Part shown: one piece after another, positions 14,681-57,634 of the stretch | How positions within the stretch are numbered: position 1 is the first letter of the stretch | Layout: each line of letters starts with the position of its first letter | Source: a virus | Taxonomy: Duplodnaviria > Heunggongvirae > Uroviricota > Caudoviricetes | DNA length: 64,000 nt | IMG/VR virus record: IMGVR_UViG_3300045597_000172 | Strand: one strand, 5' to 3' | Program-made: the position numbers and the translations under genes | Notes under the pieces: generated by a model | Told to the model about the DNA's origin: nothing | The model's input: only the letters and a program-made list of their open reading frames with translations | Database searches by the model: none

Positions 14681-14705
14681 TCATCATAAAAAAGGAGAAA
14701 TTGAA

Positions 14706-15701
14706 TTGAAAAAATTAATAACCGGAATTAGTACAATTGCTATTTTATTAAGTATGGGAACTACATCTGCGTCAGCAAGAGGATTCGGACACGTAAGCGT
14801 CCACACCACCCCTCACGTGAGTGAACATTTCTCACCACACGTAACAGAACACGAAACAAATCATTTTACAAAAGAACCTCGTACTCATAGTTATCATAGT
14901 TACAATCGATCCAATTATCATTCATATAATAACCATCATACCGGAATTATGTGGTTCTTATTTGGATGGATGAGCGGTCATCATACTAATCAATCACACA
15001 CGGCCAATACGACTAAAAAAGCCGCTGCAACACCGTCTAAATCATTAGCAACTTCTGTAATGACAACCTCGATCAAAAACCAAATTGGAAAGGAAGTGAA
15101 ATATAACAATGCCGGCGCATTCATTGTAAACAACAACAAGTCAACCCTAAATGCTAACGTAAACGTTGCACCATACGCAACCAATACATTAGATAGCCAA
15201 AAACGCGCGGCCGACGGCGAAGCATTGCTAAACAAAACGACACGTCAATACCAAAATCGTCAAAGTACAAATAACGGCGCAAGTGACTGGAAACCAGCCG
15301 GTTTCATTCAGCGCAGTAATTTAAGCGGTACTTATTCACACGCCTACAATCGTGGACATTTACTCGGCTATGCACTCGTTGGCAATCTTAAAGGCTTTGA
15401 CGCATCCGAAAGTAATGCTAAAAACATCGCGACACAAACAGCTTGGGCTAACGAAGCACGTGATACTAATTCAACTGGACAAAACTATTATGAAGGCTTA
15501 GTCCGCAAAGCACTTGATCAAAACAAGACAGTTCGTTACAGTGTCAAAGACTTGTACGAAAACAAAACAGCTAAAGTTCCAAGCGGTGCATGGATTCAAG
15601 CAAAATCTAAAGACGGCTCGATCAACTTTAACGTCTTCGTACCAAATGTCCAAGCTGGTCTCAAAATTAATTATCAAACAGGAAACACTACACTAAACTA
15701 A
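14706..15701 (+). CDS. secreted DNA/RNA non-specific endonuclease (streptodornase/DNA-entry nuclease type)
   Basis: Signal peptide from TTG 14706 after AAGGAG; His-Me motif NRGHLLG, QTAWAN, NYYE. Confidence 0.85.
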   Translation: MKKLITGISTIAILLSMGTTSASARGFGHVSVHTTPHVSEHFSPHVTEHETNHFTKEPRTHSYHSYNRSNYHSYNNHHTGIMWFLFGWMSGHHTNQSHTANTTKKAAATPSKSLATSVMTTSIKNQIGKEVKYNNAGAFIVNNNKSTLNANVNVAPYATNTLDSQKRAADGEALLNKTTRQYQNRQSTNNGASDWKPAGFIQRSNLSGTYSHAYNRGHLLGYALVGNLKGFDASESNAKNIATQTAWANEARDTNSTGQNYYEGLVRKALDQNKTVRYSVKDLYENKTAKVPSGAWIQAKSKDGSINFNVFVPNVQAGLKINYQTGNTTLN

Positions 15702-35120: not shown

Positions 35121-36032
35121 TCACCTACCATCTATTGGCAAACGTGTTCGTAGACCATGAAGACAACCAATTCCGAAACCGACATAATGCATAATAACAC
35201 CCAGCAATAATGCAGCACCGGTACTTGTTGCGAATTTAACATCTGACAAACTCGTCCAACGTGCATACAATAAAGCAACTACCAGAAACAAAATCACAAT
35301 CAATACTAATTGAACCCATCGGGATTGGCGTAAATGACGCAAAGTTTGAAATAAGGTAAACCCTAACAAACCATAAATACCAACCGACGCACCAACGATC
35401 GGCGTAATACTATGAGAGACCGCATATAACCACGTTTCTTGTTTTGCTAAGAATTGGGCAACAAAACTAACAACTTCTACAATCAACCACGTAAAGCCAA
35501 TCCCCATCAAATTCAAAACAAACCACTCACGCACAGCCTTTCGTAAAGGTACTTGTAGAAAAAATAAAATTCCGCATAAGATCAAGAACACCAAAATGTT
35601 ACCAAAAAGATGACCCCAACTGGCATGAATAAAACCAGCAAACAAAACACAAATTGCCATAACTACTACCGATGCAATTTTTAAAATAAAACCTAACAAT
35701 AATCCGATTGCACCGTGGGATGTTGCAAACTGAGCGATCCAAGCAGAAACCGGTTTAATAATTGCTATATGCGAAGTTTCACCCATTACAACTGGCCAAT
35801 GCGATAATCCTTTTGCTGAAACACCAGTAAAAATAAGCTCAATCACAAATACTAAAACCCAAATTCCGACTAAAGCAAGTGGCATAAGCCACGAGCCAGC
35901 GCTATCACCCAAACTATCAAACGGACTTGATAAATTTCCTAACTTCCCCGCACTTCCAACATCAGCATCAACATCCTTATTATCATCTAACGTAGGAAAA
36001 TCAAACGGTTCTTTCATATTATTATCTTTCAA
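35121..36032 (-). CDS. rhomboid family intramembrane serine protease
   Basis: HASWGHLFGN, GASVGIYGLLG (catalytic Ser), MHYVGFGIG (catalytic His); probable TTG start 36032. Confidence 0.8.
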   Translation of the reverse strand: MKDNNMKEPFDFPTLDDNKDVDADVGSAGKLGNLSSPFDSLGDSAGSWLMPLALVGIWVLVFVIELIFTGVSAKGLSHWPVVMGETSHIAIIKPVSAWIAQFATSHGAIGLLLGFILKIASVVVMAICVLFAGFIHASWGHLFGNILVFLILCGILFFLQVPLRKAVREWFVLNLMGIGFTWLIVEVVSFVAQFLAKQETWLYAVSHSITPIVGASVGIYGLLGFTLFQTLRHLRQSRWVQLVLIVILFLVVALLYARWTSLSDVKFATSTGAALLLGVIMHYVGFGIGCLHGLRTRLPIDGR

Positions 36033-36168
36033 AACAAATCTCCACCTTCCAATTAAAAAACTAACAATTCTCGTGGCACCCACGAAAACTAGCACTTCAA
36101 TATGTTCAGTATAGCACATTGATAAGTACAAAAAAAGAACGGCATCATTCAGATACCGTTCCAAAATT

Positions 36169-37497
36169 TTAAACTGGATTATCAACAACATCCTTACGCC
36201 AAGATTTTAAATTATGAAGACCCAATTCAATTCCTTGAGCAACCAATTCTGGAGTCGGTTTACTAATTATAGCACCCCTAAAGCCATCAACCGTAGTCAC
36301 AACAGGCAAGCCGTAATGATTAAGCAAACTAGCTTTAATCGTACTTTCATCACCTAACGGTAACCACCAAGCCAACGCACACTGTTTCAAGACCCTAGCC
36401 CGATTTTTACCTACCAAATTACCATGCATTTTGATATGCGAATCTAACTTGTACTTATCAACCAATTGTTTGTACGTTTTCTCAGAAGCCGTTGTAAAAT
36501 AGCCAATCAAATGAATTTTAGCAGCCGGAACTCTTTTTAATATTCCACGAATTTGGTTAATCAACTGCATAACGACGGTATCATTCGCCCAAACACCAAC
36601 GCCAGCAACTCTAATCGGACTATAAAAATCAGACTGTTCGACAGCACTTCCAGTTTTCCAAGGATTGACATATTTAAACTTATAAACATCTGCGACATGT
36701 TGGTTAACGGCAATAACATCGTTACGATTACGCAATTCTTTCACGCGATCTGGGTCAGTTGACTGAATATGTGCAACTTCGGTTAATGCTACCCGATCTT
36801 CCAATTGCGTCCAAACCGGATCTAAATATGGATCATCATTATAAACAGAACCATAATCATTAGCAATCCGTCCATACCACCACAACATTAATGACAATTC
36901 ATTTCTCAATAACCAATTAGGAAGTCCGTGAGTCCCAAGGAGTCGATACATTGTTTTATCAGCCATGTGTGAAATTTCCAAAACAGGCGTTCCATCGACA
37001 TGATAAACCAACTCAATTCCCATCTTACCATCCGGATTAAAATAACGTCTTCGACTTAAAAATCCACGTGCATCATAAAAATCTTCTGCCCACTTGACAT
37101 GGTTTTGATCAAACAATTCAACGCTTTTCGTTCGCATTGTATAACCCGGTAAATAATTAATCTTACCAACTTGCTGACCCATACTCATAACACTAGTATA
37201 ATGGTCATCACCACGATCAACCGGTGATAAAATCGTTTCTCGCTTATCATAACGAGGCAAAACCCGCATATCATAATCAATTCCACGACTTGGAAAATCT
37301 AACGCACCTTGTAGATAATCATACATATTTAAAGATTGATTATCTGATAAACCTAAACGTTCTAATCGGGGATGTAATTCAAAATCCTGTGCCACAGTCA
37401 GCAGTTTCATATTAGAATGTTGTTTAACCCGATTGACCACGTTCTCGCCACGGTCATCTAAAAATTCTGGTAAAATATATAAACTCGAAACTGACAT
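36169..37497 (-). CDS. GT-B glycosyltransferase-like protein (GtfB/TagE-like, possibly non-catalytic partner)
   Basis: EDFYDARGFLSRRRYF repeat domain shared with GtfA/TagE family; no clear EX7E motif. Confidence 0.7.
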   Translation of the reverse strand: MSVSSLYILPEFLDDRGENVVNRVKQHSNMKLLTVAQDFELHPRLERLGLSDNQSLNMYDYLQGALDFPSRGIDYDMRVLPRYDKRETILSPVDRGDDHYTSVMSMGQQVGKINYLPGYTMRTKSVELFDQNHVKWAEDFYDARGFLSRRRYFNPDGKMGIELVYHVDGTPVLEISHMADKTMYRLLGTHGLPNWLLRNELSLMLWWYGRIANDYGSVYNDDPYLDPVWTQLEDRVALTEVAHIQSTDPDRVKELRNRNDVIAVNQHVADVYKFKYVNPWKTGSAVEQSDFYSPIRVAGVGVWANDTVVMQLINQIRGILKRVPAAKIHLIGYFTTASEKTYKQLVDKYKLDSHIKMHGNLVGKNRARVLKQCALAWWLPLGDESTIKASLLNHYGLPVVTTVDGFRGAIISKPTPELVAQGIELGLHNLKSWRKDVVDNPV

Positions 37498-39218
37498 TAT
37501 TTAACCCCCTGATTATCCTTAATTTCTTTTAAAATGACCTTACGTTCTTCATCAATTTGTTTCTTTTCACGCTCAACAGCAATTTTTGACTGCTTAACAA
37601 TCGCGGCATCTAAATCAGGCACTTCTTCTAAACCTTTCACGGATGTATTCCTACGAACCGTATTCTTCCACATAACCATTGCTTGCGAAACTAATGTTTG
37701 CCAAGCTTTGAAAATTGCATCTGAAGAATACCTTTCAGAATAAGCATACGCATTATCACTTAAAGATTGCGCTAAATCAGCATTACTAAAAATCTCAACT
37801 AATCGTTCAGACGCACGATCAACATCATCATAATCAACCACATAGCCATTCTTTTGATCTACTACTAACTCATTAGGCCCGTAATTAACATCGTTAACAA
37901 CTCCGATTTCGCCATGATTTTGAGCTTCCATTAGAGCGATATTGAATCCTTCCATCGTCGAAAATACCATATACACCTGATGCTGATCTCTGGCCGTATC
38001 CAAATCAGGATTATAATCATTAATCGAAACACAATCTTCAACATTGTATTTTTTGATCATGGCATCAATTTTTTTCTTAGCTGCATCATGATTACGACTA
38101 TCTCGATACCCATAAACATCTAATGAAATATCCGGAATTTTAGTTCGTGCTTTGGCCACCGCTTCGATAATTTTATCAATTCGCTTTTCCTCAGCACGCC
38201 GAGCAGTAACTAACACGCTATGCGGCTTACGGGATAATTGTGAAACTTGTTTAACCCGTTCAGTCAAACCTACAGGAATTGTTACCACCCGATTACCTAA
38301 ACCAAACCGATTTCGAACATCAACCGTTTGTTTATGCGTAGCGGCAACATAAAAATCGTAACGGTCGTTATTATATAAATCGAATTCGTAATAATTATTC
38401 AATAACGAGTGCATTTCATCATGTACATCTGCACCATGACTGTTATGCAAATGCGCAATTTTAATAGCCGGCTTAGTTAGTTGCATTAAAGCATCTTCGT
38501 AACCTTCCATACGATCACCAACAAAGTAATTAGGCTCATCAACCGACCAATACTCATTGTTCAAATCATCCAAATACTTAGCAACAACCGTACGATAATT
38601 CTGATAATAATGACGTCGGTTTTCACGATCGACTACTTCCCATACGCCCGCAACTGTCTTATGCTCCACATTTTGTGAGAATGTCTGCGATAAAACTGGA
38701 CGACCCTTTAAATCAAACCAGACAAACATGTAAACTTTATTATCTGGTGTATAATACTGAGATCGAGATAAAAACCCACGAACATCGTACTCATCAACCC
38801 GATACAAATTACCATAAATATCAAATCGTTCGACCATTGATACCCGTTTAATATTATCGGAAAAACCATCAAACCAATGAATTCTTCCCATCAAACTATT
38901 ATTTTGTTTAACTAAATAACAATTATTATGTTGCGGATCAACTTCGAAACGTGTTTCAACGTCCGCTAAAAATATATCATTCGGTGTAACAATCTTACTT
39001 TTCACGGACTGTGTGCCCTGATAATAATCAAACAGGGTTAACGCATCATTTGAAACCAATCCAAATCTGGATAACCAGCGATCCAATTGTGGATTCCACG
39101 CCGTATAAATCAATTTACACGGCACATGGTGGTCTTTAAAAACTTTGACCCGCTGTAACTGAGCGTGTTCAATTCCAGAATTTTGTTTATTCAATGCAGT
39201 ATTGACAAAAAAATACAT
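37497..39218 (-). CDS. GT4 glycosyltransferase (GtfA/TagE-like)
   Basis: NSGIEHAQLQR, DEYDVRGFLSRSQYY, ARRAEEKRID, EGFNIALMEA (EX7E), DVNYGPNEL. Confidence 0.88.
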   Translation of the reverse strand: MYFFVNTALNKQNSGIEHAQLQRVKVFKDHHVPCKLIYTAWNPQLDRWLSRFGLVSNDALTLFDYYQGTQSVKSKIVTPNDIFLADVETRFEVDPQHNNCYLVKQNNSLMGRIHWFDGFSDNIKRVSMVERFDIYGNLYRVDEYDVRGFLSRSQYYTPDNKVYMFVWFDLKGRPVLSQTFSQNVEHKTVAGVWEVVDRENRRHYYQNYRTVVAKYLDDLNNEYWSVDEPNYFVGDRMEGYEDALMQLTKPAIKIAHLHNSHGADVHDEMHSLLNNYYEFDLYNNDRYDFYVAATHKQTVDVRNRFGLGNRVVTIPVGLTERVKQVSQLSRKPHSVLVTARRAEEKRIDKIIEAVAKARTKIPDISLDVYGYRDSRNHDAAKKKIDAMIKKYNVEDCVSINDYNPDLDTARDQHQVYMVFSTMEGFNIALMEAQNHGEIGVVNDVNYGPNELVVDQKNGYVVDYDDVDRASERLVEIFSNADLAQSLSDNAYAYSERYSSDAIFKAWQTLVSQAMVMWKNTVRRNTSVKGLEEVPDLDAAIVKQSKIAVEREKKQIDEERKVILKEIKDNQGVK

Positions 39219-39255
39219 ATGCTAATTCCTCACTTTCAAAAGCCGTTCTTCTACC

Positions 39256-39322
39256 ATACTTTAATTATACCAAACTAAAAGACTAAATCAAGTCTTAAAG
39301 TAGTCTCAATTTAGTCTTTTTA
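39256..39322 (-). promoter_or_regulatory. duplicated promoter/operator, copy upstream of gtf operon
   Basis: 43 bp identical to 43374-43416; TTGATT-16 nt-TATAAT with TGn extension; AAAAGACTAA/TTAGTCTTTT inverted repeat. Confidence 0.8.
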
Positions 39323-39334
39323 TCAATTTATGAA

Positions 39335-40129
39335 TCATTTTTCAGAACTATGCAATTTAACCACCATTTGTCCATCTCGATTATCATTAATCCCTAATCT
39401 CGACTTACGTAACTCAACTTCCTTATCATGGCGCACTTGATCTTCTTTTGACGTTGGCTTAACGGGATCTTTTTTAGCTGTATGCGCGTCATCTGCATGA
39501 TATAAGACCTTTGACTCATTACCCGTTTGAAGCCTCGAATACCGATCTAACACTCGCACGATCGGCTTAAAATCATTAGCCGTCAACTTACGCGCAACTT
39601 TAAGAATTAACCAAACGGGTTCAATTTCAGCACGATAAAATTTCAAATCTAATGCAAACCCGTGAGATAATAAAAATCTCAATTGTTGCTGAAAGCCTAA
39701 TCGCACATCCGCATACTGATCAATCGTCGGTCCGACCTGTGCAGTCTGTTGTAATTGCTTCAATAACGGAACCGTATTGACTAAGTACGCATGTATTTGG
39801 TTTTGAACAATCATATTAAACGCATCTTTATGAGTCTGATGATACGATTCAATTAACATTGACAAATTAACATCTTTTGGAAGTAACTCTTTTGGCAACT
39901 CACCGGTGACTTGATAATATTGGTAGGATAATTCTAACAAATGACTATATGCTATCTCATATTTACCAGTACCGGGTTTTAACGTATCCAAAAACTCTTT
40001 TTGCGTAGCTACCTGATGCAACTTAACAATATCCTCATTATGTTTTTTCTTACTATATTCAGCTAATCCGTCCATTTTATTATAAACACGGAGTAACTGT
40101 TTCTTCGCTTCTTTTTTCAAATAACCCAC
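39335..40129 (-). CDS. hypothetical protein
   Basis: GAGGT RBS, 264 aa. Confidence 0.75.
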   Translation of the reverse strand: MGYLKKEAKKQLLRVYNKMDGLAEYSKKKHNEDIVKLHQVATQKEFLDTLKPGTGKYEIAYSHLLELSYQYYQVTGELPKELLPKDVNLSMLIESYHQTHKDAFNMIVQNQIHAYLVNTVPLLKQLQQTAQVGPTIDQYADVRLGFQQQLRFLLSHGFALDLKFYRAEIEPVWLILKVARKLTANDFKPIVRVLDRYSRLQTGNESKVLYHADDAHTAKKDPVKPTSKEDQVRHDKEVELRKSRLGINDNRDGQMVVKLHSSEK

Positions 40130-40131
40130 CT

Positions 40132-42291
40132 CTAATTATTACCGCTATTAACAGTTTGATACAATTTTTCTAACGATCCCGTTTCACTCGAAAATCCGCT
40201 TGTATGCAATAATTGTGTTGGCGAAATATTCAAGTAAAATGGTACATACGTATTTTCACGATTGACTGCTTGCGTAAAGTTATTAGACAAATTAACACCA
40301 TTTTCATAAGATTTTGTCTTATCATCAACTCCGCTTGGCGCAGTCCAATCAGAATTATCAGTATTCGGTAAAGAACTCGCTTTTGTCATAACCGCTTTAT
40401 ATAACTGCTGTGCAATTGCATCTTTTTGATCAGTCAGATAGTTCGTTTTATCATACGGATTATCATAACCAACCCACACCGCAACCGTATACGTCTTCGT
40501 ATAACCGACCATCCAACCATCAGTTAACGCATTTTTGATATCTTCACGTCCAACAGTACCCGTTTTACCCGCTTCGCTAATATTATTGACTTTGGCACTA
40601 ACACCAGTACCGCCAGACTCAAAGACACCTTTCAAAATATCAGTAATTAAGTAAGCAGTCTGATTAGAAAAAACTCGTTCATGGACAGCCTTTGTTTTTA
40701 AAACTTGATGATTACGTTTATTAGTAATTGAATCAACAAACCGTGCATTTGTACGAACACCGCCATTTGCCAAACTCGAATACGCTGATGCTAAAGCTAA
40801 TGGACTTGTATCTAACCCAATCGCATTTGCATAATACAAATTACTACTTGGTAAACCTAACGATGTTAATGCTTTTTGTCCGTTGTCTAAACCTACTGCG
40901 GCTAATGACTTAACCGCTGGAATATTTCTCGACTGTACTAACGCTTGCCTGATCGTAATATTCCCTTGATACTGATGATCCCAATCATTGACCGAAGTTT
41001 TTGTATTCGGATAATTATACGCAGAATCATCAACTTTTGTATTTGCAGTCCATTTAAACAAGTCAAAACCGGTAGCATAATCTAACAATGGCTTAATACT
41101 TGAACCAGAAGAACGCTTAACATTAAATGCTCGATTATATCCACCTAATACGGTTTGATTACGTCCGCCAGAAATTGCAGAAACCTTGCCATCTTTGTTG
41201 TTAATCACCACAATGGATTCTTGAAATTTATCATCCGGATATGCTTGTGTTTTAACAATCTGATTAATTTCATCTTGCAACGTTTGATTCATAGTTGTCT
41301 TAACCGTAATTGTTGAATTCGTAAGTTGATCATCATATCGAGAAAGTTGTGCATTAACCGCCGAAACGAAACCATTATATTGCAACTTTTGTTGTCGTTT
41401 ATTTAACGTTTCCTGAACATTTGTTTTAGCTAAAACCAAATTAGTATTAACCGATTCCTTAGACAATTTCTGATATTCAGCTTTTTTCAAATAACCAGCT
41501 TCATGCATCGATCTCAAAACCACATTTCTTCGATACACCATCGCTTTTTTATTCGTATATGGATTATAAACAGCTGGAGAATTAACAATTCCGACCAACG
41601 TTGCTGATTCCAACGTATTTAATTGGTCAGGCTTTTTATTATAATAATACTTAGCCGCTGCAATTAAACCCTGCTGTCCGTTTCCATAATTAGTTTTATT
41701 CAGATACCACGTTAAAATCTGATATTTAGAATATTTCTTAGCTAATTCTTCAGCTAAAACAATTTCTTGCGTCTTACGTCTAATTGTCTGATCTTTTTTA
41801 CTTGTCGAATAAAACGCTAACTTGATTAACTGTTGCGTAATTGTCGACCCACCAGAAACACCTTTGTGTAAGAACGTATCAACCCCAGCTTTTGCCGTAT
41901 GCAACCAATTAACGCCCGATTCTTTAAAATAATCACGATCTTCAGTTGCAACTAATGCATTAACAATCTTTGGTAAATGAGAAACATCCTGCTTAGATAA
42001 CGCACGGTATGTTGAATTATTAGACTGATAAAAAACCTTACCGTCTGAATTTTGATACCGTACATTAACTTGTTTTTCAAACAAACGGGTCTTATCAGCA
42101 GAAACAAATACTGAACTTAATTTAGGACGAGTTACATAATAATAACCAAAAACACTTCCGCCAAAAATTAAAACGGAAAAAATACCTAAACAGATTCCTC
42201 TTCGCCACCAGCGGTGCCGATAACGTCGTGCTTTTCTTCTGAGTTTTCGTTGGAGCTTACTGCCTCTTGCTCTTTTAGTGAATAATCCCAT
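40132..42291 (-). CDS. class A bifunctional penicillin-binding protein (PBP1A-like)
   Basis: TM anchor; transglycosylase ATEDRDYF, GGSTITQQL, RKTQE; transpeptidase SSIK, SRN, KTG. Confidence 0.92.
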   Translation of the reverse strand: MGLFTKRARGSKLQRKLRRKARRYRHRWWRRGICLGIFSVLIFGGSVFGYYYVTRPKLSSVFVSADKTRLFEKQVNVRYQNSDGKVFYQSNNSTYRALSKQDVSHLPKIVNALVATEDRDYFKESGVNWLHTAKAGVDTFLHKGVSGGSTITQQLIKLAFYSTSKKDQTIRRKTQEIVLAEELAKKYSKYQILTWYLNKTNYGNGQQGLIAAAKYYYNKKPDQLNTLESATLVGIVNSPAVYNPYTNKKAMVYRRNVVLRSMHEAGYLKKAEYQKLSKESVNTNLVLAKTNVQETLNKRQQKLQYNGFVSAVNAQLSRYDDQLTNSTITVKTTMNQTLQDEINQIVKTQAYPDDKFQESIVVINNKDGKVSAISGGRNQTVLGGYNRAFNVKRSSGSSIKPLLDYATGFDLFKWTANTKVDDSAYNYPNTKTSVNDWDHQYQGNITIRQALVQSRNIPAVKSLAAVGLDNGQKALTSLGLPSSNLYYANAIGLDTSPLALASAYSSLANGGVRTNARFVDSITNKRNHQVLKTKAVHERVFSNQTAYLITDILKGVFESGGTGVSAKVNNISEAGKTGTVGREDIKNALTDGWMVGYTKTYTVAVWVGYDNPYDKTNYLTDQKDAIAQQLYKAVMTKASSLPNTDNSDWTAPSGVDDKTKSYENGVNLSNNFTQAVNRENTYVPFYLNISPTQLLHTSGFSSETGSLEKLYQTVNSGNN

Positions 42292-46664: not shown

Positions 46665-46693
46665 AAAAAAAACAAGGAACAAATCGTTCCTTG
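46665..46693 (-). terminator. terminator downstream of giant RNAP gene
   Basis: CAAGGAAC-GATTT-GTTCCTTG + T run on minus strand. Confidence 0.8.
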
Positions 46694-46709
46694 CTCAAAC
46701 TAACTATTA

Positions 46710-49700
46710 TCACAACTCAGGACCTTTGACAGTTGCCTGTGCTTTCGTGCCATTGTCAGATGCAACACCAACTTGATGATGCTTATCATAAAACGATACC
46801 GCATTTTCAATCGCATTCTGACGGATCCGATTCAACTTGTACTTTTGTAAATTACCACGAACATCATGTAACGTTTGTGCAACCGTATCATTAGTTGTCA
46901 TCTGTACATAATATGCATTCGTTAACTTACGTTGATTCGTAACACCATCAAATAACGAAGCACCAACATTTTCTTGATACTCTTTGCCAAGATCATTGAC
47001 CCTCGAAATAAAATCATTCCGATAATCAGTTGGATTTTCATTAGCTTTAACTAAACCATTCTTAGTCTTATCACTAACCGCATTCTTCGAAACCGCAGTC
47101 TGCAAAAATTCCATACCAACTTGACCGTTAACTGTACCACCCGTTACATTATGAACCGTAATTGGTGACCAGTAATTACCGTTAAGAATCTCAGCAACCC
47201 GATCGTAACTACTTCCAACTGAACTCTTAGCAGTATTAACCGTTTCAGTAGTTCCGTTATCAACGCCCTGCCATTTTCCAGTCAACGTATCACCAGCAAT
47301 TTCAACCGAAGTTGGTTTTGGTGTTTCGAGACCCTGAACAAGCTCGGTACGAACTTCCTCAAGCAACCGGCCCGTAACGTTTTGACCTTTAGTTGCATCA
47401 AAAACATCACCACCAGAAACATCTTTTAACGACATCCCTGCGCCATAAACACTGCCACGCTTACTTTCAGCTTCAACCAACGAAGCATTACCAGTATCAC
47501 GCAATTTCGTATAGACATACGTATTTTGCGAAAACTTAGCCATCATCCCGGCTTTCAAGACGCTTGGTGAAACAGTATTCCAAGCCTTATCATCAAAGTT
47601 CTTAACCGCATCTGCCGCAGACTTCCATGGATTCTTTGCACCATCAGGTTCAATTTCCAAAATCTTAGATGCCTGAACATCATCCTTAAACATCAATGCT
47701 TTTGCATAACTGAAATATTGTTCAACCGAATTAAAATTACGAGGATGATCATCATGAACGTGAATATCATGAACATCATCATCAATGTTAACCTGTGCCT
47801 TAAATGGCTGAGCATTCAAATTAGAAAATGGAGCATATGCACCATAAAAAGCAATCGTTTGAGTATCTTTATTTTCAACCATACCATAACGGCCAGAATG
47901 ATCAACCCGAAGATCACGTTGATACATCTTATCTGCTAACGACTTAGCTTGTCGAATTTCACCATCCGGAATTTGTGGAGTTGCAGTACGTGATACATTT
48001 GTCTTAGCCTTCAATTCAGCTAATACTGCATGACTGCTTGGCAAACCAGTCTGTTGACGCTTAGACTCCGTATCATCACGGTGCTGCAAATTCAATTGGA
48101 ATTCATCCATAACTTCACCAACCATTGAATCCTGCTTAGCCGCATACTGTTGACGTTTTACTTGTTGATGAACTTTATCTTGATACGTATTGAATTTTTC
48201 GACATTCTTCATATTGTTTTTAACAATATTTGTCAAAACTTCTTGCGTACCCGCATCAGGAACCGCTACAAATTTAACTTCATCCGGATTACCCAAACTA
48301 CGTGACAATGCAGAATTAAGAACAACCGTATCGTCTTTGACGTTATCACTAACATTGATATTTAACGCAACATCACAATTATCATCGTTCGTCTTTAACT
48401 GCAACTTATTCCAATCGTGACGATTTCCTAACGAACCATTTTCGATTCCAAGCTCATTAGCAACCGCCTTAGAAATAATCACAGTGTTAAATGGAACATC
48501 ATCAGCAACATTCGGATGATTTACAATCGTACTCTTAGCAACATCTAACTTATCCGCCATAGTCAACGTATCAACTACTGAATTCAACGAATTATCACGC
48601 TGTGATAGACTTAACTGCTTATTTAACTGGTCAGCAGATAAATTACCAAACACGGATTCTCGAATATATGAACCCGAATCACCAAACAAGTTAGCCGGAA
48701 CATAATCTTCCTGATCTTGCTTAGTTAATTCTTCAGTAATACCCGCAAAACCATGCATGTTAATCTTAGCCGTAATTGTTGCAAATCCACCGTCTTTAGT
48801 AGCATCTTCGATTGAACGAATTTCCTTAGTTGGACTCTTAGGGTCAACTAAAACATCAGCTAAACGTTCAAAGTTATGACGATCAACACCAAGGCCCATT
48901 CCATTGTCTTTGTCATTGTACAAGAAATCCATAATCTCAACAAATTCATCACGCGTGACTTTATCTGGTTGATTATCTTTTTCCGCTTTCAACATTGGAA
49001 CTTGAACCTGACGAATGTCTTTACCTTGCTTATCAGCAATTCGCTGACGCAAATCTTTCATGAAATCATCACGAAGATATGGCTGACTAGCTTCATCAAC
49101 AGTCGTCCTAAACTCAGTTAACTGCTGTGCATTCTTAGGATCAATCTTAACACCAATTGCATTTGCAACATCCATGACTTGGTCATCAGTGAAATCATTA
49201 CTTAAAATACTCTTTGGATATTCCCGTAATGTCTGATCTGTACCCGGAACCTTATAGTCACGTAAAGCTGCGGCACGTAAAGCAACATCCGACGGATCAT
49301 TACCCAATCGACCTTGACTTTCCGGTCCCAACAAGGCAAACGATGGATAAACTTTATTTGGAAAATTACCACGTAACAATTCGCCAAGTGGTTCCTGCAA
49401 AATTTCAGAAACACGACCAGCCATAACTGGATCACGTTTAATCGAAAGTACCTTTTGCGTACCAGCCTGACCGATTGCAGCCGCAGAATGCATTCCCAAA
49501 TTACTACTATTCATCATCACAGCCGTAATCTTTTGTTGCGTCGAACCGGGAACCCCTGTCATATCACTCTTAATCTTAGTAGCACGCTGTACAGCTAACA
49601 AGGTATCATGCAAACCAGTCAATTCACGTTCATAAGCATTACGTGCATTAACATCTAACTTACCATCGACAACCTGAGCTTCACCCATTGCGCGTACTTC

Positions 49701-52700
49701 ACTAAACAACGGTTTCTTCATGTAACCATCAATCAAGCCCGTAACAGCACTTGATTTACCTTTAGCACCTTCGTTAGCAAATTTCATCAATGATGCACGT
49801 AACGTATCTTCACTCGTATAATCAACACCATCATTCCGCAACATCGAAACTTCACCTTGACTAATTTGAACCTCACCATTAGCATCCCGGCTAGTTTCAA
49901 AACCACGCGTACGTTGAACAATTTCATCAACAACTTGACGTGCGCCACGATAATCACCGTTGTCATAACGAGTTTTAATTTCGTTATCAACTAACATCAA
50001 CAAGAAATCACCGTCATTAAAATCGGGATGTCCATCCTTATCAAGTTTCGTTAACTCACCATTTTCATCAAACCATGAATCATCAACGACATCTCGACGC
50101 ATACTCTCCAAAGCCTGCTTCCGGAAACCGGGATCTAAGAAATTACCACTGACAACATTGCCATCTCGACCAGTTACATCATAATCATTGCTTGTATTGA
50201 CCGCCATTTCAACGATTTCAGCATTGATATTCAACAATGTAGACTTTTGAGAATTATCCAACATCCAACGGTCAACTTCCATGATTGAACCAAGTTCACG
50301 TTGTGCACCCGCATCTGGCATAGACGTCAATCCCAAGTTATCACCATCAAAATCGGCATCCATTAATGCGGCCATTACTGGACTAATACGAACACCCGTA
50401 AGTGCATCATTAATCTTAACTCGGAAGCCTAACGAACCTTGTTCACGCCAAACTGGATCACGATGGACATGTAAATATCCCCAATCAGAATGACCATCGA
50501 CATGTGCCATGCCATCTTCACCAGTTACAAAATTCAAACGTTTAGCAATTGCTGGTGAAATTTCAATAACATCCATTGGCAATTCGGGATTAGCAGAAAC
50601 CTGACTTGTTACAGAATCTTCAGCATAACCACCTAAAACATAATTACGGAAGAATCCATTTTTAGGACTGCCACCACCAAATGCAAAACGATTAGCTTCA
50701 GCATTAATCCGACTAACAGATCCTTGAATATTAAGTTCCTTAGCCAATTGTTCATTAATCTTAGCTTGTACCGCATCATCACCGTGAGCCAAATCAGCAT
50801 CTTTAGTAGCCTTAACTAAGACTTCGTATTGTGCCAAGTTAGTTCCCAAATTCTGATACAAACGGTTAAAGTCAGAAATCACAGTGGTATCATCCATCGC
50901 AATTGTATTAACCCGCATCCGTTCTGGCAAAATATACAACGAATTTGTACGTTTTCCACCAGCAGTCGTTACCGTAACACCCTCTGGTAATCGTAAAACA
51001 CCACCGTCAGGTAATTGCTGCAAGAAATCTTCACCCGCATTGTATTTGTCCGGTGCCATCATATCAGTATTTGGCGCAATTGCACCCGTACGACGAGAAA
51101 CTGAACGTAACGTACGTAAGAAAGTTACCGATGCTGGCTTCAACTCACCATTTTGATCAAGGCCAACAAATTTTTGCGAACGTGCACTAGAAACCTTATT
51201 AGAAGCAGATTTACTAAACGTCATATCTCGATTAATCAATCCATGATAAGAACGCTTGATCTTCTGCAAAACATCCGGCTGAATAACATATTCAGTTTCA
51301 ACTGTTTCACGCGCAATCTTATCATAATCGGCTTGTTCAACTCGATCAGGTAATAAATCAACACCCATTGCAAGCATCGATTCACGCAACGTTTGCAAAT
51401 TCTGGCCATTACGACGATGCCAATTACCAACAATATGTGCACCCTTAGCATTATCACCGTTATTCAATAAAATACTCAACTTACGACCAGTATCATCATT
51501 TGGCTTATCATATAACGTAACCTTATGGTTAATCGTTTGGTTCGTAATAATTAACTTACCAGAATTAATCGTAGCGTTAGTAGCAACAACTTCGCCAGTT
51601 TCACGATATTGTCCGTCACCATCAACCCGCACACGTTTATATGTCATTGGCTTCGAAGATGGACGAGTCAGATACGTATATCCAGTAGCACCGTTATTAC
51701 GTGAAATTTGACTCATCTCGTTCATAACAACTTGCAAATCGGGATGTTGCTTAAACAACTCTACAATATCTAATAATCCATGCTTATCTGCTTCTGCTAA
51801 ATCCATATCAGGATCAATCACATGCGAAATCGTTGCCTTATTACCACCGTTATCAGAAAGTTTATCACCAATTGTTAACGAACGATAAATTGGAAGACCG
51901 TTTCCATCAACCTGATCAGAAATTTGATGCGCATCGGCAAATGCCTTTGAAACTACCAAACCATCTTCCATTGAAAATGCACCAAGCGCCATCGTAGCTA
52001 CTTTAACATCATCAATAGTTTCATGACCCTTAATTGCTTGTTCCTTTGAAACTGGTTGACGGTCACCGGCATTTTTCAAAGAATCATCGAAAAACTCAGT
52101 ATTTTCAATTGGTGTACCAGATGCAACACCAACAATCTTGCCATTTGCATCTTTCATATATGAACCATCAGCATTACGAAATGCATTAGGTAAAACTCGG
52201 CCGTCATCAGTTACTTGGGCACCCTCAACTAAATAAGTCAACAACCCAAACATCTTACCTTGTCCAGTCATATTATCAGAAATTAACAAATTACCAGACT
52301 CATGTGCAACTTCACCAACACCATGACCACCATACACACTAATTGGATCATGCAAATAACGAATAACATCCAACGTAGTTTCTTTAGCATCCTGCGGATT
52401 TGTCAATAATCCATTAGCTTTCATTTCAGCTAAGCCATCTTCAAATCGTTTCATGTACGAAATAACTTCAGTTGTCTTAGTAGCCGCTAATGCAGCATCT
52501 TCCAAACGTACCGCATTCAATTCAGTTTCACGTTTAGCCTGACTCATTTCATCAACGGTATTATTAAGCGATGATTCTTCTACACGATTACCAAGAACTT
52601 CATTATGAAGTAACTTATTCATAATCGTATTAGAGTTATAACGGGTAATCGTACCGACATCACGTGTAGAAATGATTGTATCAACCGCTTGCCCAACTTC

Positions 52701-55700
52701 ACGGAATAACGCTTGATCATATCCCATTACACGTAACCGATTAAAATGACCTAAGCCGTTACGTTCTTCATCACGGAAACTTTCTTTACTCCAATTGCCG
52801 GATGCATCACGGTCAGGATTCAAAATCCAACCACGATAACGAGCTTGATACGTAAATTGTCCAGACGTAACATCCTGTCCATCAAATCGGTTATACGCCG
52901 TCCGAATTAAGCCATCATGATCAGGTGCAAAAATTTGTCCAATCGTACCTTCAACCGGCTGATAACGAACATCATTTGTACCATCTTTGTCAGCACGATA
53001 AACACGACCCTTTGCAGTTGTTTCATAACCGTGTTTATTAATTGACGTTGGCTTAGCCGTGGCTTCATCATACTTTTTATAAGTAGCACCACCACGTTGT
53101 TGTTCATGAGTTGCGGCCTTATAAACCGGAACCTTAGCTACAAAATGAACAACACCTTGCGCATCAATCTTAATATCATCATTACCAACAATAACCCCAC
53201 GAGTTTCTAATCGTGATTTTACAATTTCCAACGAACGTGCTTTAAACTCGTTAGGTGAAACATCTCGAATTAACCGTGAACCATCACGACTAAATGCAGA
53301 CGGATTAGGGTTTTCAGCAGGATCAAAACTAAATTTCTTACGTCCTGCTTTAACATCTTCCATATATTGACGTAACTTGAACTCATCACTATTAGGATCC
53401 TGATCCGCAGCTCGTAAATCATCAATCGTCATTGCTGTTGACTTATTAAAATCAACATCTGGAGTTGCATCAGCCGACTGGTAACGCTCACCAGCTTTAA
53501 CTGAATCAACATACGCACGTAATCGTTTTGCATTCGGAGAATCAAACTGAACTGCACGTTCCTGAACCGTTTCACTGGCATAGCTATTATCACCAACTAA
53601 ATTATCTGCATATTCACTCTTAGAAACGGCCTGTGCCATCATAAACGCATACAGTGTCGAATTAGCACCAGCTTCAGTTTGCTTAATAACTTGCGTCAAA
53701 TTCAAATCAGAATTTAATTCAAATTTGCTAAGTAATTCATTATGCAAATCAAGATAAGCATGTTGTGCTTTAGTCTTAGCCATCGGATCTGAAATCATTC
53801 CCAATCGTGCATATTGCTCACGATAAGACATCTTATTCAAATTGTCATCTAAGTCTAAGCCATCACCTTCAACATCCGACAAAATTGTCTTAGCATCGTC
53901 AGAATCAAGTAACAATGATTTCATCTTACTGTGCAATGCCATAATTTCTTGCTGTTCATAACCTTTAGATGTTTTAAACTTAGCCGTTTCCATATACTGA
54001 TGTTCATAATCGGACAATGATAAGTCCATGTAATCGTCATGCAAAACAGCATTCTTAACCGGCGCTTTACCAAACGTCTTATTCATCTGCTCAACTAAGC
54101 CATCAAACACTTCTAACCGACGAGCTTTTAATACCGGATCAGTTACATTTGCAACCAACGCTTGTCGATTTTGAATTAATTCATGATCATCAACACTATT
54201 TTGGTCAGCCGTAGCAACTAATAAGCCATTTTTAAATGCAGTCAATACTAATTTCTGGCTTTCTAAATCAAGTACATCACGACGAACCTTTTCAGTTCCA
54301 TGACCAGATTCCGATAATGTAACATCCGTAACATCATTTGACAAAATATGTTTAAACGTCTTCTGTGCTTGAGCATACGTCCGATTTGAATTATCTTGAT
54401 CCGGACCCATCAACATCTTCAAATAATTAATACGAGCATCACGATAGGCAACGTTGATTAATTCATTCGCATCATCGCCATCGACTTGATATGGATCCAT
54501 CCGTGGATTAGTTGTAGCTGTATCCACACGGTCATCACCAACAATTGCACTGCGTAAATCCAAATGAATTTTACCCTGAACATCATCTTGTACAGAACTC
54601 GTAGCAATTTCATCACCGTCTGTACCATCAATTACCTGAACTGGAGCAATTTCAGCATCAACCTTACCCAAATTAATTTGTGCTTGATAACTATTTGAGT
54701 TAGAAGAACTTAAACGATTAACAGTTTCAATCTTTGCATCTGGTAAATACGACTGTGTACCCTTTGATAAGACGTTTTTATTAATTCCCAACAAGTTGGC
54801 AATTCCAGCAACAGCTAATTTATTCTTTGTGACTTGATCCAAACCAACATAACGTGCTTGAGCAACCATTCGTGAACGTTGCACATCAGGTACATTATTA
54901 GCACCGAAATCATCACGACGTGGTTTGAAAGCTTCCAATCGACGTTCACTATTCCGGAAAAGAACCGTTCCGTCATTTTTATGAACAATTGGTGACATTT
55001 CAGATCCGTCTTTATTGATTGACGACGCAATGGCATGCTGCATTTCTAAGCCAGTACCCATCTCAGCCTCAGTTTCGAATGGCAAACGAGTCAATTCAGG
55101 ACTCCAATAAATACCCTCACGCGTACGGATTTGACCAGTCAAGTACGGATGTTGCGGATCAACTAAGGTAATCAACGCGGCCGAATTATCATTCAAACGT
55201 AAAGCAACTGAATTGTCCGAACCCTGTACAACACTGTAATCAATCCCTGCATCATGAACCAACGTCAAAACCGTAATCATTGTTTCAACATCTGATGGTG
55301 AAACTTCATGAATCTTACCATCAGCACTACGTTGTCCAATCAAATCAACCGTAGCTTTATCAGAACCGGCAATCAATACAGAATCACTAAGACTATCTGT
55401 CAACAACGATTGCAAACTTTTACGACGACCGGCATTCGGCATTACTGAACCCAACGCGGTCATTAATTCATTAACCGAAACCGGGCTTTTTTCATCGATG
55501 TTAGAATTACGCCACCAGTAACGACTCTGTGTAACACCTTTAGGCGTATAAGCATACTGATGATGGTCTGAACTTGGTGCAAAAACGTATTCTACACGCG
55601 TTTGAGATGGTACTGCTGCAACATTATCCGACGAAGTCTTATCAGCATTAGTTTCGGCATCAGCCTTTTTCTTCTTTTTAACATTTTGGTGATTATCACT

Positions 55701-56687
55701 AATTCCAAAATCTTCGGGACGAACAACAGTGGCATCTTTACCGGTGAATTGTTTAATATCAAACATTCCATTAAACGTACCGCCATGAACTTCACCATCA
55801 ACCGTTGGAGCAGTAGCAAACGCAATCCCTTCATCCGCATTCATGAACATTGTCTGATTGCGTTTTTCATAGACAAACCGTTGCTTACCGTTAGCAGAAC
55901 GTTCAGCATGACTAGAAACCTGATCAGCCATTCCCAACATACTGTAATACAACCCCTGTTTATTTTGATCAGGTACCGTAAATCCACGATCATTCTTAAT
56001 AGTTTTTCCATTGTCGTCATATTGAGCAAGCGTGTATGCTTGTGTATTCATTGGCAAATCAGCTACAAACCGAATTTTATCAGCACCTAACCGATAAATA
56101 TCATTTCGTAACCATGTACTATCACCGTGAGCCTTATGATCTTGAATAAGTTTTGCATAAGCTGGATTCTGAGCAACAAGTTCTTCACGTCGCTCTAATC
56201 CCTCTTGATATTTAACATTCAAAATAGCACGTGCCCAAACCAAATCTGCACCGTCAGCCATTCCTGAATGAGCTTCAACATAACCATGTTGGCGAATCCG
56301 ATCACGTAAAATATTCTCAAACGCATCTTGAACTTTCGCCCATGGATTTGTAGGAACGCCATCGGTCTGTGCCGAACCTTTGTACGTCATATCACCTAAG
56401 TTATAACCATCACTGCTTAAATCTTTAGGACGATGTCCGGTCAATGCAACAACGTATGGTTTTAAACCGTTTGATTGAGGATCCTGATTTGGTCGCCAAT
56501 CATGCAGCATCCGAATCTGTCCACGACCAATTGCATCCAAGCTCGTCATTATCTTTGGCGTAGCATAACCGCTTGATTGAATATCAGACAGTCGATGCTG
56601 ATTTGTACCAATATATCGGTCAGCCGTATACGGACGGTCTCCCCATGAATAAGTTGAACCTTTTATATTTTCTGCCAAAATAGTCAC
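46710..56687 (-). CDS. 3325-aa polyvalent protein: SLOG/YspA + single-chain fused beta-beta' two-barrel RNA polymerase + degenerate barrel duplicate + NADAR
   Basis: Collinear beta motifs FSMEDGLVVS, GDKLSDNGGNKATIS, DLQVVMNEMSQISRNNG, then beta' motifs YILPERMR..SDFNRLY, KNGFFRNYVLGG, HRDPVWREQGSLGF, MDADFDGDNL (50340-50360), trigger loop SAAAIGQAGTQKVLS; N-terminal LTGHRP..SGMADGADLVWA; C-terminal FSNL..SVEQY..AKF..LVEA..GQNVTGRLLEEVR. Confidence 0.92.
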   Translation of the reverse strand: MTILAENIKGSTYSWGDRPYTADRYIGTNQHRLSDIQSSGYATPKIMTSLDAIGRGQIRMLHDWRPNQDPQSNGLKPYVVALTGHRPKDLSSDGYNLGDMTYKGSAQTDGVPTNPWAKVQDAFENILRDRIRQHGYVEAHSGMADGADLVWARAILNVKYQEGLERREELVAQNPAYAKLIQDHKAHGDSTWLRNDIYRLGADKIRFVADLPMNTQAYTLAQYDDNGKTIKNDRGFTVPDQNKQGLYYSMLGMADQVSSHAERSANGKQRFVYEKRNQTMFMNADEGIAFATAPTVDGEVHGGTFNGMFDIKQFTGKDATVVRPEDFGISDNHQNVKKKKKADAETNADKTSSDNVAAVPSQTRVEYVFAPSSDHHQYAYTPKGVTQSRYWWRNSNIDEKSPVSVNELMTALGSVMPNAGRRKSLQSLLTDSLSDSVLIAGSDKATVDLIGQRSADGKIHEVSPSDVETMITVLTLVHDAGIDYSVVQGSDNSVALRLNDNSAALITLVDPQHPYLTGQIRTREGIYWSPELTRLPFETEAEMGTGLEMQHAIASSINKDGSEMSPIVHKNDGTVLFRNSERRLEAFKPRRDDFGANNVPDVQRSRMVAQARYVGLDQVTKNKLAVAGIANLLGINKNVLSKGTQSYLPDAKIETVNRLSSSNSNSYQAQINLGKVDAEIAPVQVIDGTDGDEIATSSVQDDVQGKIHLDLRSAIVGDDRVDTATTNPRMDPYQVDGDDANELINVAYRDARINYLKMLMGPDQDNSNRTYAQAQKTFKHILSNDVTDVTLSESGHGTEKVRRDVLDLESQKLVLTAFKNGLLVATADQNSVDDHELIQNRQALVANVTDPVLKARRLEVFDGLVEQMNKTFGKAPVKNAVLHDDYMDLSLSDYEHQYMETAKFKTSKGYEQQEIMALHSKMKSLLLDSDDAKTILSDVEGDGLDLDDNLNKMSYREQYARLGMISDPMAKTKAQHAYLDLHNELLSKFELNSDLNLTQVIKQTEAGANSTLYAFMMAQAVSKSEYADNLVGDNSYASETVQERAVQFDSPNAKRLRAYVDSVKAGERYQSADATPDVDFNKSTAMTIDDLRAADQDPNSDEFKLRQYMEDVKAGRKKFSFDPAENPNPSAFSRDGSRLIRDVSPNEFKARSLEIVKSRLETRGVIVGNDDIKIDAQGVVHFVAKVPVYKAATHEQQRGGATYKKYDEATAKPTSINKHGYETTAKGRVYRADKDGTNDVRYQPVEGTIGQIFAPDHDGLIRTAYNRFDGQDVTSGQFTYQARYRGWILNPDRDASGNWSKESFRDEERNGLGHFNRLRVMGYDQALFREVGQAVDTIISTRDVGTITRYNSNTIMNKLLHNEVLGNRVEESSLNNTVDEMSQAKRETELNAVRLEDAALAATKTTEVISYMKRFEDGLAEMKANGLLTNPQDAKETTLDVIRYLHDPISVYGGHGVGEVAHESGNLLISDNMTGQGKMFGLLTYLVEGAQVTDDGRVLPNAFRNADGSYMKDANGKIVGVASGTPIENTEFFDDSLKNAGDRQPVSKEQAIKGHETIDDVKVATMALGAFSMEDGLVVSKAFADAHQISDQVDGNGLPIYRSLTIGDKLSDNGGNKATISHVIDPDMDLAEADKHGLLDIVELFKQHPDLQVVMNEMSQISRNNGATGYTYLTRPSSKPMTYKRVRVDGDGQYRETGEVVATNATINSGKLIITNQTINHKVTLYDKPNDDTGRKLSILLNNGDNAKGAHIVGNWHRRNGQNLQTLRESMLAMGVDLLPDRVEQADYDKIARETVETEYVIQPDVLQKIKRSYHGLINRDMTFSKSASNKVSSARSQKFVGLDQNGELKPASVTFLRTLRSVSRRTGAIAPNTDMMAPDKYNAGEDFLQQLPDGGVLRLPEGVTVTTAGGKRTNSLYILPERMRVNTIAMDDTTVISDFNRLYQNLGTNLAQYEVLVKATKDADLAHGDDAVQAKINEQLAKELNIQGSVSRINAEANRFAFGGGSPKNGFFRNYVLGGYAEDSVTSQVSANPELPMDVIEISPAIAKRLNFVTGEDGMAHVDGHSDWGYLHVHRDPVWREQGSLGFRVKINDALTGVRISPVMAALMDADFDGDNLGLTSMPDAGAQRELGSIMEVDRWMLDNSQKSTLLNINAEIVEMAVNTSNDYDVTGRDGNVVSGNFLDPGFRKQALESMRRDVVDDSWFDENGELTKLDKDGHPDFNDGDFLLMLVDNEIKTRYDNGDYRGARQVVDEIVQRTRGFETSRDANGEVQISQGEVSMLRNDGVDYTSEDTLRASLMKFANEGAKGKSSAVTGLIDGYMKKPLFSEVRAMGEAQVVDGKLDVNARNAYERELTGLHDTLLAVQRATKIKSDMTGVPGSTQQKITAVMMNSSNLGMHSAAAIGQAGTQKVLSIKRDPVMAGRVSEILQEPLGELLRGNFPNKVYPSFALLGPESQGRLGNDPSDVALRAAALRDYKVPGTDQTLREYPKSILSNDFTDDQVMDVANAIGVKIDPKNAQQLTEFRTTVDEASQPYLRDDFMKDLRQRIADKQGKDIRQVQVPMLKAEKDNQPDKVTRDEFVEIMDFLYNDKDNGMGLGVDRHNFERLADVLVDPKSPTKEIRSIEDATKDGGFATITAKINMHGFAGITEELTKQDQEDYVPANLFGDSGSYIRESVFGNLSADQLNKQLSLSQRDNSLNSVVDTLTMADKLDVAKSTIVNHPNVADDVPFNTVIISKAVANELGIENGSLGNRHDWNKLQLKTNDDNCDVALNINVSDNVKDDTVVLNSALSRSLGNPDEVKFVAVPDAGTQEVLTNIVKNNMKNVEKFNTYQDKVHQQVKRQQYAAKQDSMVGEVMDEFQLNLQHRDDTESKRQQTGLPSSHAVLAELKAKTNVSRTATPQIPDGEIRQAKSLADKMYQRDLRVDHSGRYGMVENKDTQTIAFYGAYAPFSNLNAQPFKAQVNIDDDVHDIHVHDDHPRNFNSVEQYFSYAKALMFKDDVQASKILEIEPDGAKNPWKSAADAVKNFDDKAWNTVSPSVLKAGMMAKFSQNTYVYTKLRDTGNASLVEAESKRGSVYGAGMSLKDVSGGDVFDATKGQNVTGRLLEEVRTELVQGLETPKPTSVEIAGDTLTGKWQGVDNGTTETVNTAKSSVGSSYDRVAEILNGNYWSPITVHNVTGGTVNGQVGMEFLQTAVSKNAVSDKTKNGLVKANENPTDYRNDFISRVNDLGKEYQENVGASLFDGVTNQRKLTNAYYVQMTTNDTVAQTLHDVRGNLQKYKLNRIRQNAIENAVSFYDKHHQVGVASDNGTKAQATVKGPEL

Positions 56688-56835: not shown

Positions 56836-57186
56836 CTAAAACCCAAGAAATCCGAGCAATGGTGTTACGTAGTTAATCGCACCAAAGACTTCGCCCCAAG
56901 TATCGCTAAAGTTGCCTTGGATGGTATTTACCGCACCACTCATCAGTAAGATAGCCCCAATAACGAAAGCGATACCGGAACTCCAATACCACTTAGCTTT
57001 CTCACGTGATTTAACTACGGCAATTACTAAGAAGATAACTGCTACAATAATGACAATAGCACCACCGAAACTAGCAACAACATCCCACTTAGATTTTAAA
57101 TTACTGGCTCCTCGTGAAAGCGACGAGAATAAACCCGACGCAACAATAGGAGCATTTGCAAGTAATGACGTCATAAAACTTGCCAC
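56836..57186 (-). CDS. small membrane protein, VirB2/pilin-like (putative)
   Basis: 116 aa with two long hydrophobic helices after an N-terminal leader; tra context. Confidence 0.55.
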   Translation of the reverse strand: MASFMTSLLANAPIVASGLFSSLSRGASNLKSKWDVVASFGGAIVIIVAVIFLVIAVVKSREKAKWYWSSGIAFVIGAILLMSGAVNTIQGNFSDTWGEVFGAINYVTPLLGFLGF

Positions 57187-57604: not shown

Positions 57605-57634
57605 AAAAAACTTGCAGGAAAATCCCACAAGTTT
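57605..57634 (-). terminator. probable terminator
   Basis: AAACTTG..GGA-TTT-TCC..CAAGTTT + T run. Confidence 0.65.

Follow-up and report, generated by a model that had tools for sequence, protein, structure and literature searches.

Can an RNA polymerase that has shed the parts by which the cellular enzyme holds sigma region 4 over the −35 element still depend on the sigma factor of its host? The question is raised by a giant gene on the minus strand of a 64,000-nucleotide (nt) stretch of DNA, referred to here as the window, from IMG/VR virus record IMGVR_UViG_3300045597_000172 (Caudoviricetes). The gene encodes a protein of 3325 amino acids (aa), and a preliminary description, made from the sequence alone, proposed that the polymerase embedded in it lacks the β flap and the β′ zinc finger and so cannot use host sigma70 or −35 recognition. 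Our analysis bears out the anatomical half of this proposal: the flap (SBHM) and the Cys4 zinc-binding domain are both almost certainly absent, and their absence is a family-wide trait. As to function, the enzyme probably does not use host sigma, but the stronger wording of the description holds for the −35 mode through region 4 and the flap and not for sigma use overall, since the clamp helices have been retained. The features on which the argument turns are the following.

46710-56687, minus strand: giant open reading frame (ORF) of 9978 nt and 3325 aa, a polyvalent protein gene (ORF list and translation)
51348-53285, minus strand: β-like half, aa ~1135-1780 (model, Foldseek, VIA-align, HHalign)
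51837-51968, minus strand: β-type double-psi barrel core without flap insert, aa 1574-1617, ED...GDK...GNK
49350-51347, minus strand: whole β′-like half, aa 1781-2446 (model, Foldseek, VIA-align)
50928-51347, minus strand: β′-like N-terminal clamp segment of 140 aa without zinc-binding domain, aa 1781-1920 (VIA-align, Cys count)
50913-50927, minus strand: PERMR motif, the equivalent of β′ LPxxPxxLRP, aa 1921-1925, with R1925 invariant
50679-50873, minus strand: clamp-helix (coiled-coil) equivalent, aa 1939-2003 (hairpin in the model, HHalign)
50340-50462, minus strand: β′-type barrel with R2076, P2078 and the catalytic D2112/D2114/D2116, invariant in 71/71 relatives

Judging from the structural models, the module is a miniaturised single-chain β::β′ RNA polymerase of ~1310 residues (aa ~1135-2446), about half the size of the cellular pair. 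An AlphaFold2 model of aa 1347-2512 (mf8da981a9234) has a mean predicted local distance difference test (pLDDT) score of 87.9 and a predicted template-modelling (pTM) score of 0.85, with confidence falling past aa 2446; for a second model covering aa 1037-1797 (ma67ce3dd4f10) the values are 83.1 and 0.79. The best Foldseek matches of the first are β′ chains and eukaryotic largest subunits (E 1e-10, 640-800 columns), and those of the second are β chains (E 6e-9). Superposition with VIA-align places aa 1135-1725 (model residues 99-689) onto residues 23-1243 of Escherichia coli β (Z 16, 410-440 residues aligned, root-mean-square deviation ~4) and aa 1781-2512 onto largest subunits from residue 14-20 onwards (Z ~16, 400-460 aligned, deviation ~4). 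Profile comparison with HHalign agrees, pairing the module with RpoC of Ligilactobacillus equi from LPxxPxxLRP through the clamp helices to DFDGD (97.7%, E 1.8e-12, with 19% identity over the whole stretch) and with RpoB of the same species from GDK to the C-terminal helix (96.3%, E 2e-9). In the model a long bridge-like helix (aa 2346-2376) and a handful of further helices close the β′-like half, and family homology stops near aa 2480 of the 3325. Because both homology and model confidence give out near aa 2446-2480, soon after the bridge-like helix, the C-terminal third of β′ is missing as well.

The sequence family to which the module belongs was collected with HMMER using aa 1380-2480 as query. 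This search yielded 369 cluster representatives of 1150-4050 aa each, with no canonical RpoB or RpoC among them; 71 of the relatives were aligned, and a second alignment was prepared for the model of aa 1037-1797. For several relatives the Pfam matches to Rpb1_2 (40 bits) and Rpb2_6 (24 bits) lie above the cut-off. In the 3325-aa protein the same families score below threshold, RNA_pol_Rpb1_2 at the DFDGD region (19 bits) and Rpb2_6 at GDK, and for the polymerase a sequence search of the PDB returned only a weak match to a phiKZ polymerase. The barrel core opens with E1574-D1575, contains G1607-D1608-K1609 and closes with G1615-N1616-K1617, and the DFDGD motif of the other barrel lies at aa 2112-2116. 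Eight residues universal to two-barrel enzymes (D1575, K1609, K1617, R2076, P2078 and D2112/D2114/D2116) are invariant in all 71 relatives, and the residue ahead of the barrel Asp, at 1574, is D in 43 and E in 28 of them. An extra carboxylate at this position is typical of DNA-dependent enzymes and is kept here. This feature and the reach of the structural match lead us to group the protein with the DNA-dependent, cellular-type enzymes and not with YonO.

Where cellular β carries its flap, this polymerase has little more than a loop. D1575 and K1609 are 34 residues apart, exactly the spacing given in the preliminary description, and 31 residues separate D1575 from G1607; in 67 of the 71 aligned relatives the corresponding interval from barrel Asp to GDK measures 25-36 residues (family median 26). 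In L. equi RpoB the same motifs (NFED and GDK) stand 150 residues apart. The canonical spacing of ~250 quoted in the description is thus right for E. coli, where it includes an extra lineage-specific insert in the flap, and too large for L. equi. Between D1575 and G1607 the model shows only a strand (230-234), a helix (235-240) and a hairpin (243-256, all in model numbering), which are elements of the barrel itself and not a domain. In the models, superposed on E. coli β much as the description had suggested as a check, no more than a hairpin and a short helix occupy the place of the flap. Nor does the flap seem to have moved: most of the β-like half (~590 residues) aligns to canonical β, 410-440 residues doing so and 43 (model residues 155-172 and 176-200) being of low confidence, which leaves no space within the module for a flap-sized domain at another place, as far as the modelled aa 1037-2512 reach.

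The zinc-binding domain is missing too. From the end of the β-like half to PERMR (aa 1781-1921, 141 residues) there is no Cys and a single His, as expected from the earlier remark that this interval holds no Cys clusters, and in no column of the 71-member alignment does Cys reach one-third. The β′-like N-terminus has 140 residues ahead of PERMR, compared with ~235 ahead of LPVIPPELRP in L. equi RpoC. The models and the family alignment therefore uphold the absence of both a flap in the β barrel and a Cys4 zinc domain in the β′ N-terminus.

What follows for sigma is more restricted. Because the flap tip and the zinc domain are gone, sigma region 4 would not be held over a −35 element and the RNA exit channel would be open. 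It is therefore the canonical region 4/−35 mode that is excluded, not sigma binding as such; on the models, docking of region 4 to a flap, and hence −35 reading, is implausible. The main dock for sigma region 2 in the cellular enzyme is formed by the clamp helices, and a counterpart of these is recognisable after PERMR as a helical hairpin of aa 1939-1963 and 1971-2003 (model residues 593-617 and 625-657). HHalign pairs this hairpin with the clamp helices of L. equi RpoC (253-298), and its start, DFNRLY, resembles the β′ DLNDLY, with the Tyr (Y598 in model numbering) kept in at least 90% of the family. Clamp helices are universal in the two-barrel superfamily and bind other factors too, and for that reason we do not regard their presence as evidence for sigma use. 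A complex prediction of aa 1781-2206 with region 1.2-2.4 of L. equi SigA, run without controls, scored 0.00, a value to which we give no weight in either direction. None of 62 further ORFs in the window (100 aa or longer) has a Pfam match to a sigma domain. The L. equi comparator itself has two Sigma70_r2 matches of equal score on contig C117 (loci L061 and L062), 1.46 kb apart in frames of 377 and 396 aa, explained either by tandem duplication of sigA or by a repeat in the assembly.

Given the lost flap tip and zinc domain, RNA chains are most likely started without host sigma. The preliminary description went one step further and held that the enzyme must recognise promoters itself; this is one option, and promoterless initiation on single-stranded DNA or the use of an element-encoded factor is equally open. 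For the biological role we lean towards a self-contained, sigma-independent polymerase that serves conjugation from within the multi-domain protein of a conjugative element. This proposal draws on the domain layout of the protein and on its genomic setting, to which the following features belong.

55668-56465, minus strand: probable SLOG (YpsA-like) domain, aa ~75-340 (phmmer to relative P0068)
47340-47840, minus strand: NADAR domain, aa 2950-3116 (Pfam PF08719, 95 bits, 6e-27; PDB 8bau, E 5e-6)
46670-46696, minus strand: intrinsic-terminator-like hairpin (stem of 12 base pairs and T run), 14 nt past the giant-gene stop codon
61922-63998, minus strand: gene for a type IV coupling protein (VirD4-like) in two pieces, upstream of the giant gene and co-oriented (tblastn)

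The domains of the 3325-aa protein run in the order SLOG-like N-terminus, ~700 aa unassigned, fused β::β′ RNA polymerase, ~500 aa unassigned, NADAR and C-terminal tail. The SLOG assignment comes by way of the L. equi relative P0068, which NCBI lists as 'SLOG family protein' and which matches Pfam YpsA (7.6e-8); in phmmer, aa 115-162 match its YpsA/SLOG region at 1.7e-8, and the segment has no direct Pfam match of its own. Searches of atlas features gave no usable lead for aa 400-1040 and 2450-2960, where loose NCBIfam and Pfam matches are noise. Proteins described as polyvalent are multi-domain and delivered with invading DNA (PMC5512222), and the same architecture is seen here, with RNA polymerase, NADAR and probable SLOG in one chain and a coupling-protein gene upstream. 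A second terminator-like hairpin, also with a 12-base-pair stem and T run, lies at 57608-57634 on the minus strand, and the giant gene and a 116-aa ORF (56836-57186) form a unit bracketed by the two hairpins; at 57493-57465 on the same strand an extended −10-like site is found. The site and the bracketing terminators suggest that the host enzyme itself may transcribe the polymerase gene.

The association with the conjugation machinery extends through the family. In the window the giant gene lies ~5 kb downstream of the coupling-protein gene in the same orientation, and is followed by a gene for a cell-wall hydrolase (Phage_lysozyme2 and NlpC/P60). Across 58 family loci, mostly from Actinomycetota with Lachnospiraceae and L. 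equi in addition, tblastn detected the two coupling-protein pieces upstream of the polymerase gene in 51 and 49 loci, and homologues of the giant gene stand directly downstream of the coupling-protein gene in ~50. Clustering of neighbours gave the order coupling protein (50 loci), polymerase (48), 611-aa protein (38) and HU-like protein (27), the coupling-protein cluster matching Pfam T4SS-DNA_transf, TraG-D_C and TrwB. The coupling-protein gene adjoins plasmid homologues in Rhodococcus, Gordonia, Streptomyces, Staphylococcus and Lactococcus. The element itself is not a catalogued phage or plasmid: neither tblastn with the polymerase core (50,697 phage records) nor megablast with 20 kb (plasmids) returned a match. 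In the actinobacterial loci (L003-L058) the 611-aa gene and then a 127-aa HU-family gene follow ~3 kb downstream of the polymerase gene; neither has a tblastn match in the window, which contains an HU-like ORF of its own.

Cysteine content adds a further line of evidence. The residue makes up 0.98% of plus-strand ORFs (n=15) and 0.25% of the minus-strand ORFs of the transfer module (n=10), and C2771 is the only Cys among the 3325 residues of the giant protein. Such depletion is a pattern of exported Firmicutes proteins, and it would fit a giant protein that leaves a Firmicute donor cell. Actinobacterial relatives of the protein contain up to 31 Cys.

From these observations we propose that the donor would make the protein from a host-type promoter, that the protein would probably travel with the transferred strand, and that the polymerase would make primers and/or first transcripts on the incoming single-stranded DNA; host defences based on NAD or ADP-ribose may be the target of the NADAR and SLOG-like domains. 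The steps of this scheme differ in strength. That the protein enters the recipient and acts on single-stranded DNA we regard as a tentative proposition that falls somewhat short of even odds. The most specific version is more speculative again: the polymerase may be a type IV secretion substrate that enters with the single strand and makes primers or first transcripts without sigma or promoter duplex, in which case loss of the flap and zinc domain might have fitted it for single-stranded templates and for passing through the secretion channel. If this version is true, conjugation in bacteria would include RNA synthesis by a two-barrel polymerase of cellular type. Sigma independence by itself would mean that large Gram-positive conjugative elements own a private, host-independent machine for transcription or priming, and would help to explain how such elements become established in distant hosts.

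Several points weigh against our proposal. On the models, the retained clamp helices leave sigma binding anatomically possible. The search for a sigma or specificity factor covers 64 kb of a much larger element, and a part of the giant protein outside the modelled aa 1037-2512, or a separate protein, could fill the place of the flap. Gene position and architecture are the sole grounds for type IV transfer; we found no paper in which any family member was studied experimentally and none that ties a two-barrel polymerase to conjugation. As for NCgl1702 of Corynebacterium glutamicum, the family namesake discussed below, there is no named C. glutamicum protein among the best 120 matches of a search from a 2170-aa actinobacterial relative. 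Finally, four of the 71 relatives (P0030, P0048, P0091 and P0068) bear inserts of 100-154 aa at the flap position, and because the inserts sit exactly there, the site can evidently host a domain. Three of these look helical and one, that of L. equi P0068 (WP_056986674, locus L021), looks β-rich. In BLASTP the 154-aa insert of P0068 matched host RpoB at the GDK motif only and so gave no evidence of homology to the flap; the four relatives may have regained a domain at that loop independently of one another.

The alternative that best survives places the enzyme on the donor side, where it would remain and transcribe a subset of element genes from element-specific promoters, with specificity supplied by its own extra domains or by an element-encoded factor, as in the phiKZ/AR9 non-virion polymerases or in YonO, which transcribes the late genes of SPbeta, the prophage that encodes it (PMC5467207). 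Also consistent with such a role are the lack of enrichment of sigma-70-like sites between 44 and 64 kb of the window (60 observed, 62 expected), the ~1100 unexplained aa ahead of the module, which are partly conserved in relatives, and the 611-aa and HU-like proteins that follow the polymerase gene in 38 and 27 loci. We nevertheless consider a donor-side transcriptase rather unlikely, about one chance among four, because the tight family-wide pairing with the coupling-protein gene and the NADAR/SLOG-type counter-defence fusion both suit a delivered protein better; moreover, no specificity factor was identified in the window, where repeated promoter motifs were not searched for.

A second alternative would make the module a minimal core that binds the host primary sigma, or an element sigma encoded outside the window, through its clamp helices and works from −10-only or extended −10 promoters. 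The clamp-helix homologue with its conserved DxNxxY start speaks for it, and Kuznedelov et al. 2002 reportedly found that E. coli enzyme without the flap tip forms holoenzyme and uses extended −10 promoters. Against it, flap, zinc domain and about half of β plus β′ are gone, no seat is left at the exit channel for sigma region 3.2/4, and there is little identity to RpoC in the coiled coil (19% across the whole aligned stretch). A family that spans Actinomycetota and Bacillota favours host-independent function, and no sigma gene was found in the 64-kb window. We therefore judge a sigma-using core to be improbable. As for an inactive relic that serves the transfer apparatus structurally or by binding DNA, to which the lack of biochemical data for any family member and the below-cut-off Pfam scores of this copy might point, it is scarcely credible given catalytic and nucleotide-binding residues invariant in 71/71 diverse relatives and an intact 9978-nt frame with a confident two-barrel fold, which argue for purifying selection on activity.

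Away from the transfer module, the window carries the following genes.

5467-6393, plus strand: DHH phosphoesterase
10643-11581 and 12021-13022, plus strand: two DNA methyltransferases
14619-15701, plus strand: non-specific endonuclease
18298-20721, plus strand: anaerobic ribonucleotide reductase NrdD, with an activase-like Fer4_12/radical SAM ORF
25711-27033, plus strand: ATP-dependent DNA ligase
35121-36191, minus strand: rhomboid-domain protein
37497-39218, minus strand: GT4 glycosyltransferase
40132-42291, minus strand: bifunctional penicillin-binding protein (transglycosylase and transpeptidase)

Positions 1-32200 form a long co-oriented plus-strand block of small genes for phage-like nucleotide and DNA metabolism with strong positive AT skew, in which further ORFs match a T4 gp30.3-like family, cREC_REC, NUDIX and guanylate kinase. 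The genes for the penicillin-binding protein, the glycosyltransferase and the rhomboid-domain protein (35121-42291) are unusual partners for a conjugation module.

How, then, does the self-contained conjugative polymerase that we favour compare with known systems? With cellular RpoB and RpoC it shares the order of elements, the catalytic residues and the clamp helices, and the C-terminal helix of its β-like half runs into the β′ N-terminus; natural fusions of RpoB and RpoC occur in Helicobacter and Wolbachia. It differs in size (~1310 versus ~2400 aa) and in lacking the flap, the zinc-binding domain and the C-terminal third of β′, and we know of no alpha or omega partner for the fused polymerase. 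Should it prove independent of sigma, it would also provide a naturally minimised cellular-type RNA polymerase of ~1300 residues in which to study which parts of the enzyme are dispensable.

The YonO protein of Bacillus subtilis SPbeta is likewise a single-chain, two-barrel polymerase of a mobile element in which the flap and most of the accessory domains are missing; its processive, DNA-dependent activity has been demonstrated (PMC5467207). However, YonO is ~100 kDa in size, has few residues in common with the cellular enzymes, and is phage-borne and not linked to conjugation. YonO-like enzymes and those of the RNA-dependent RNA polymerase type also lack the extra carboxylate beside the β-barrel Asp (PMC2919709), and membership of the YonO-like class is ruled out for the present protein by E1574 and by a match that extends beyond the barrels (β 23-1243, and β′ from clamp to bridge helix). 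Other extrachromosomal elements encode reduced two-barrel polymerases that function without host sigma, among them Orf6 of the killer plasmid pGKL2, an Rpb2::Rpb1 fusion, and the phiKZ/AR9 non-virion polymerases. Both differ from the 3325-aa protein in keeping the SBHM/flap insert (PMC7824862), and the phiKZ/AR9 enzymes consist of four or five separate chains and use a fifth subunit of their own. A looser, purely functional analogy is offered by N4 gp50, the virion RNA polymerases of crAss-like phages and the conjugative primases Sog and TraC (PMC5512222), giant multi-domain proteins that enter with the DNA and make the first RNA on it. In N4 the promoters used are hairpins in single-stranded DNA. 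The gp50 enzyme belongs to the T7 type and both conjugative primases to the Toprim class, and delivery of the 3325-aa protein is conjectural.

The closest counterpart is NCgl1702 of C. glutamicum, a 2169-aa protein with a β::β′ fusion that was first described in print by 2003 and taken up again in 2010 (PMC2919709). Like members of that family, the present protein is a single chain with β before β′ within a giant protein on mobile DNA, its two barrels, switch 2 and funnel are conserved, its barrel is without the SBHM/flap, and its relatives are mostly actinobacterial. Unlike NCgl1702, it is 3325 aa long, resides on a giant element of low-GC, lactic-acid-type character and carries NADAR and SLOG-like domains. 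By these features, and not by direct sequence comparison with NCgl1702, it is an unusually large member of the NCgl1702-like family. That the SBHM flap, which binds sigma or TFIIB, is absent from NCgl1702-like polymerases has already been noted in the computational literature and is not new (PMC7824862). What our analysis adds to that comparison is structural confirmation of the loss, family-wide figures for it, and the caveat that the clamp helices have been retained.

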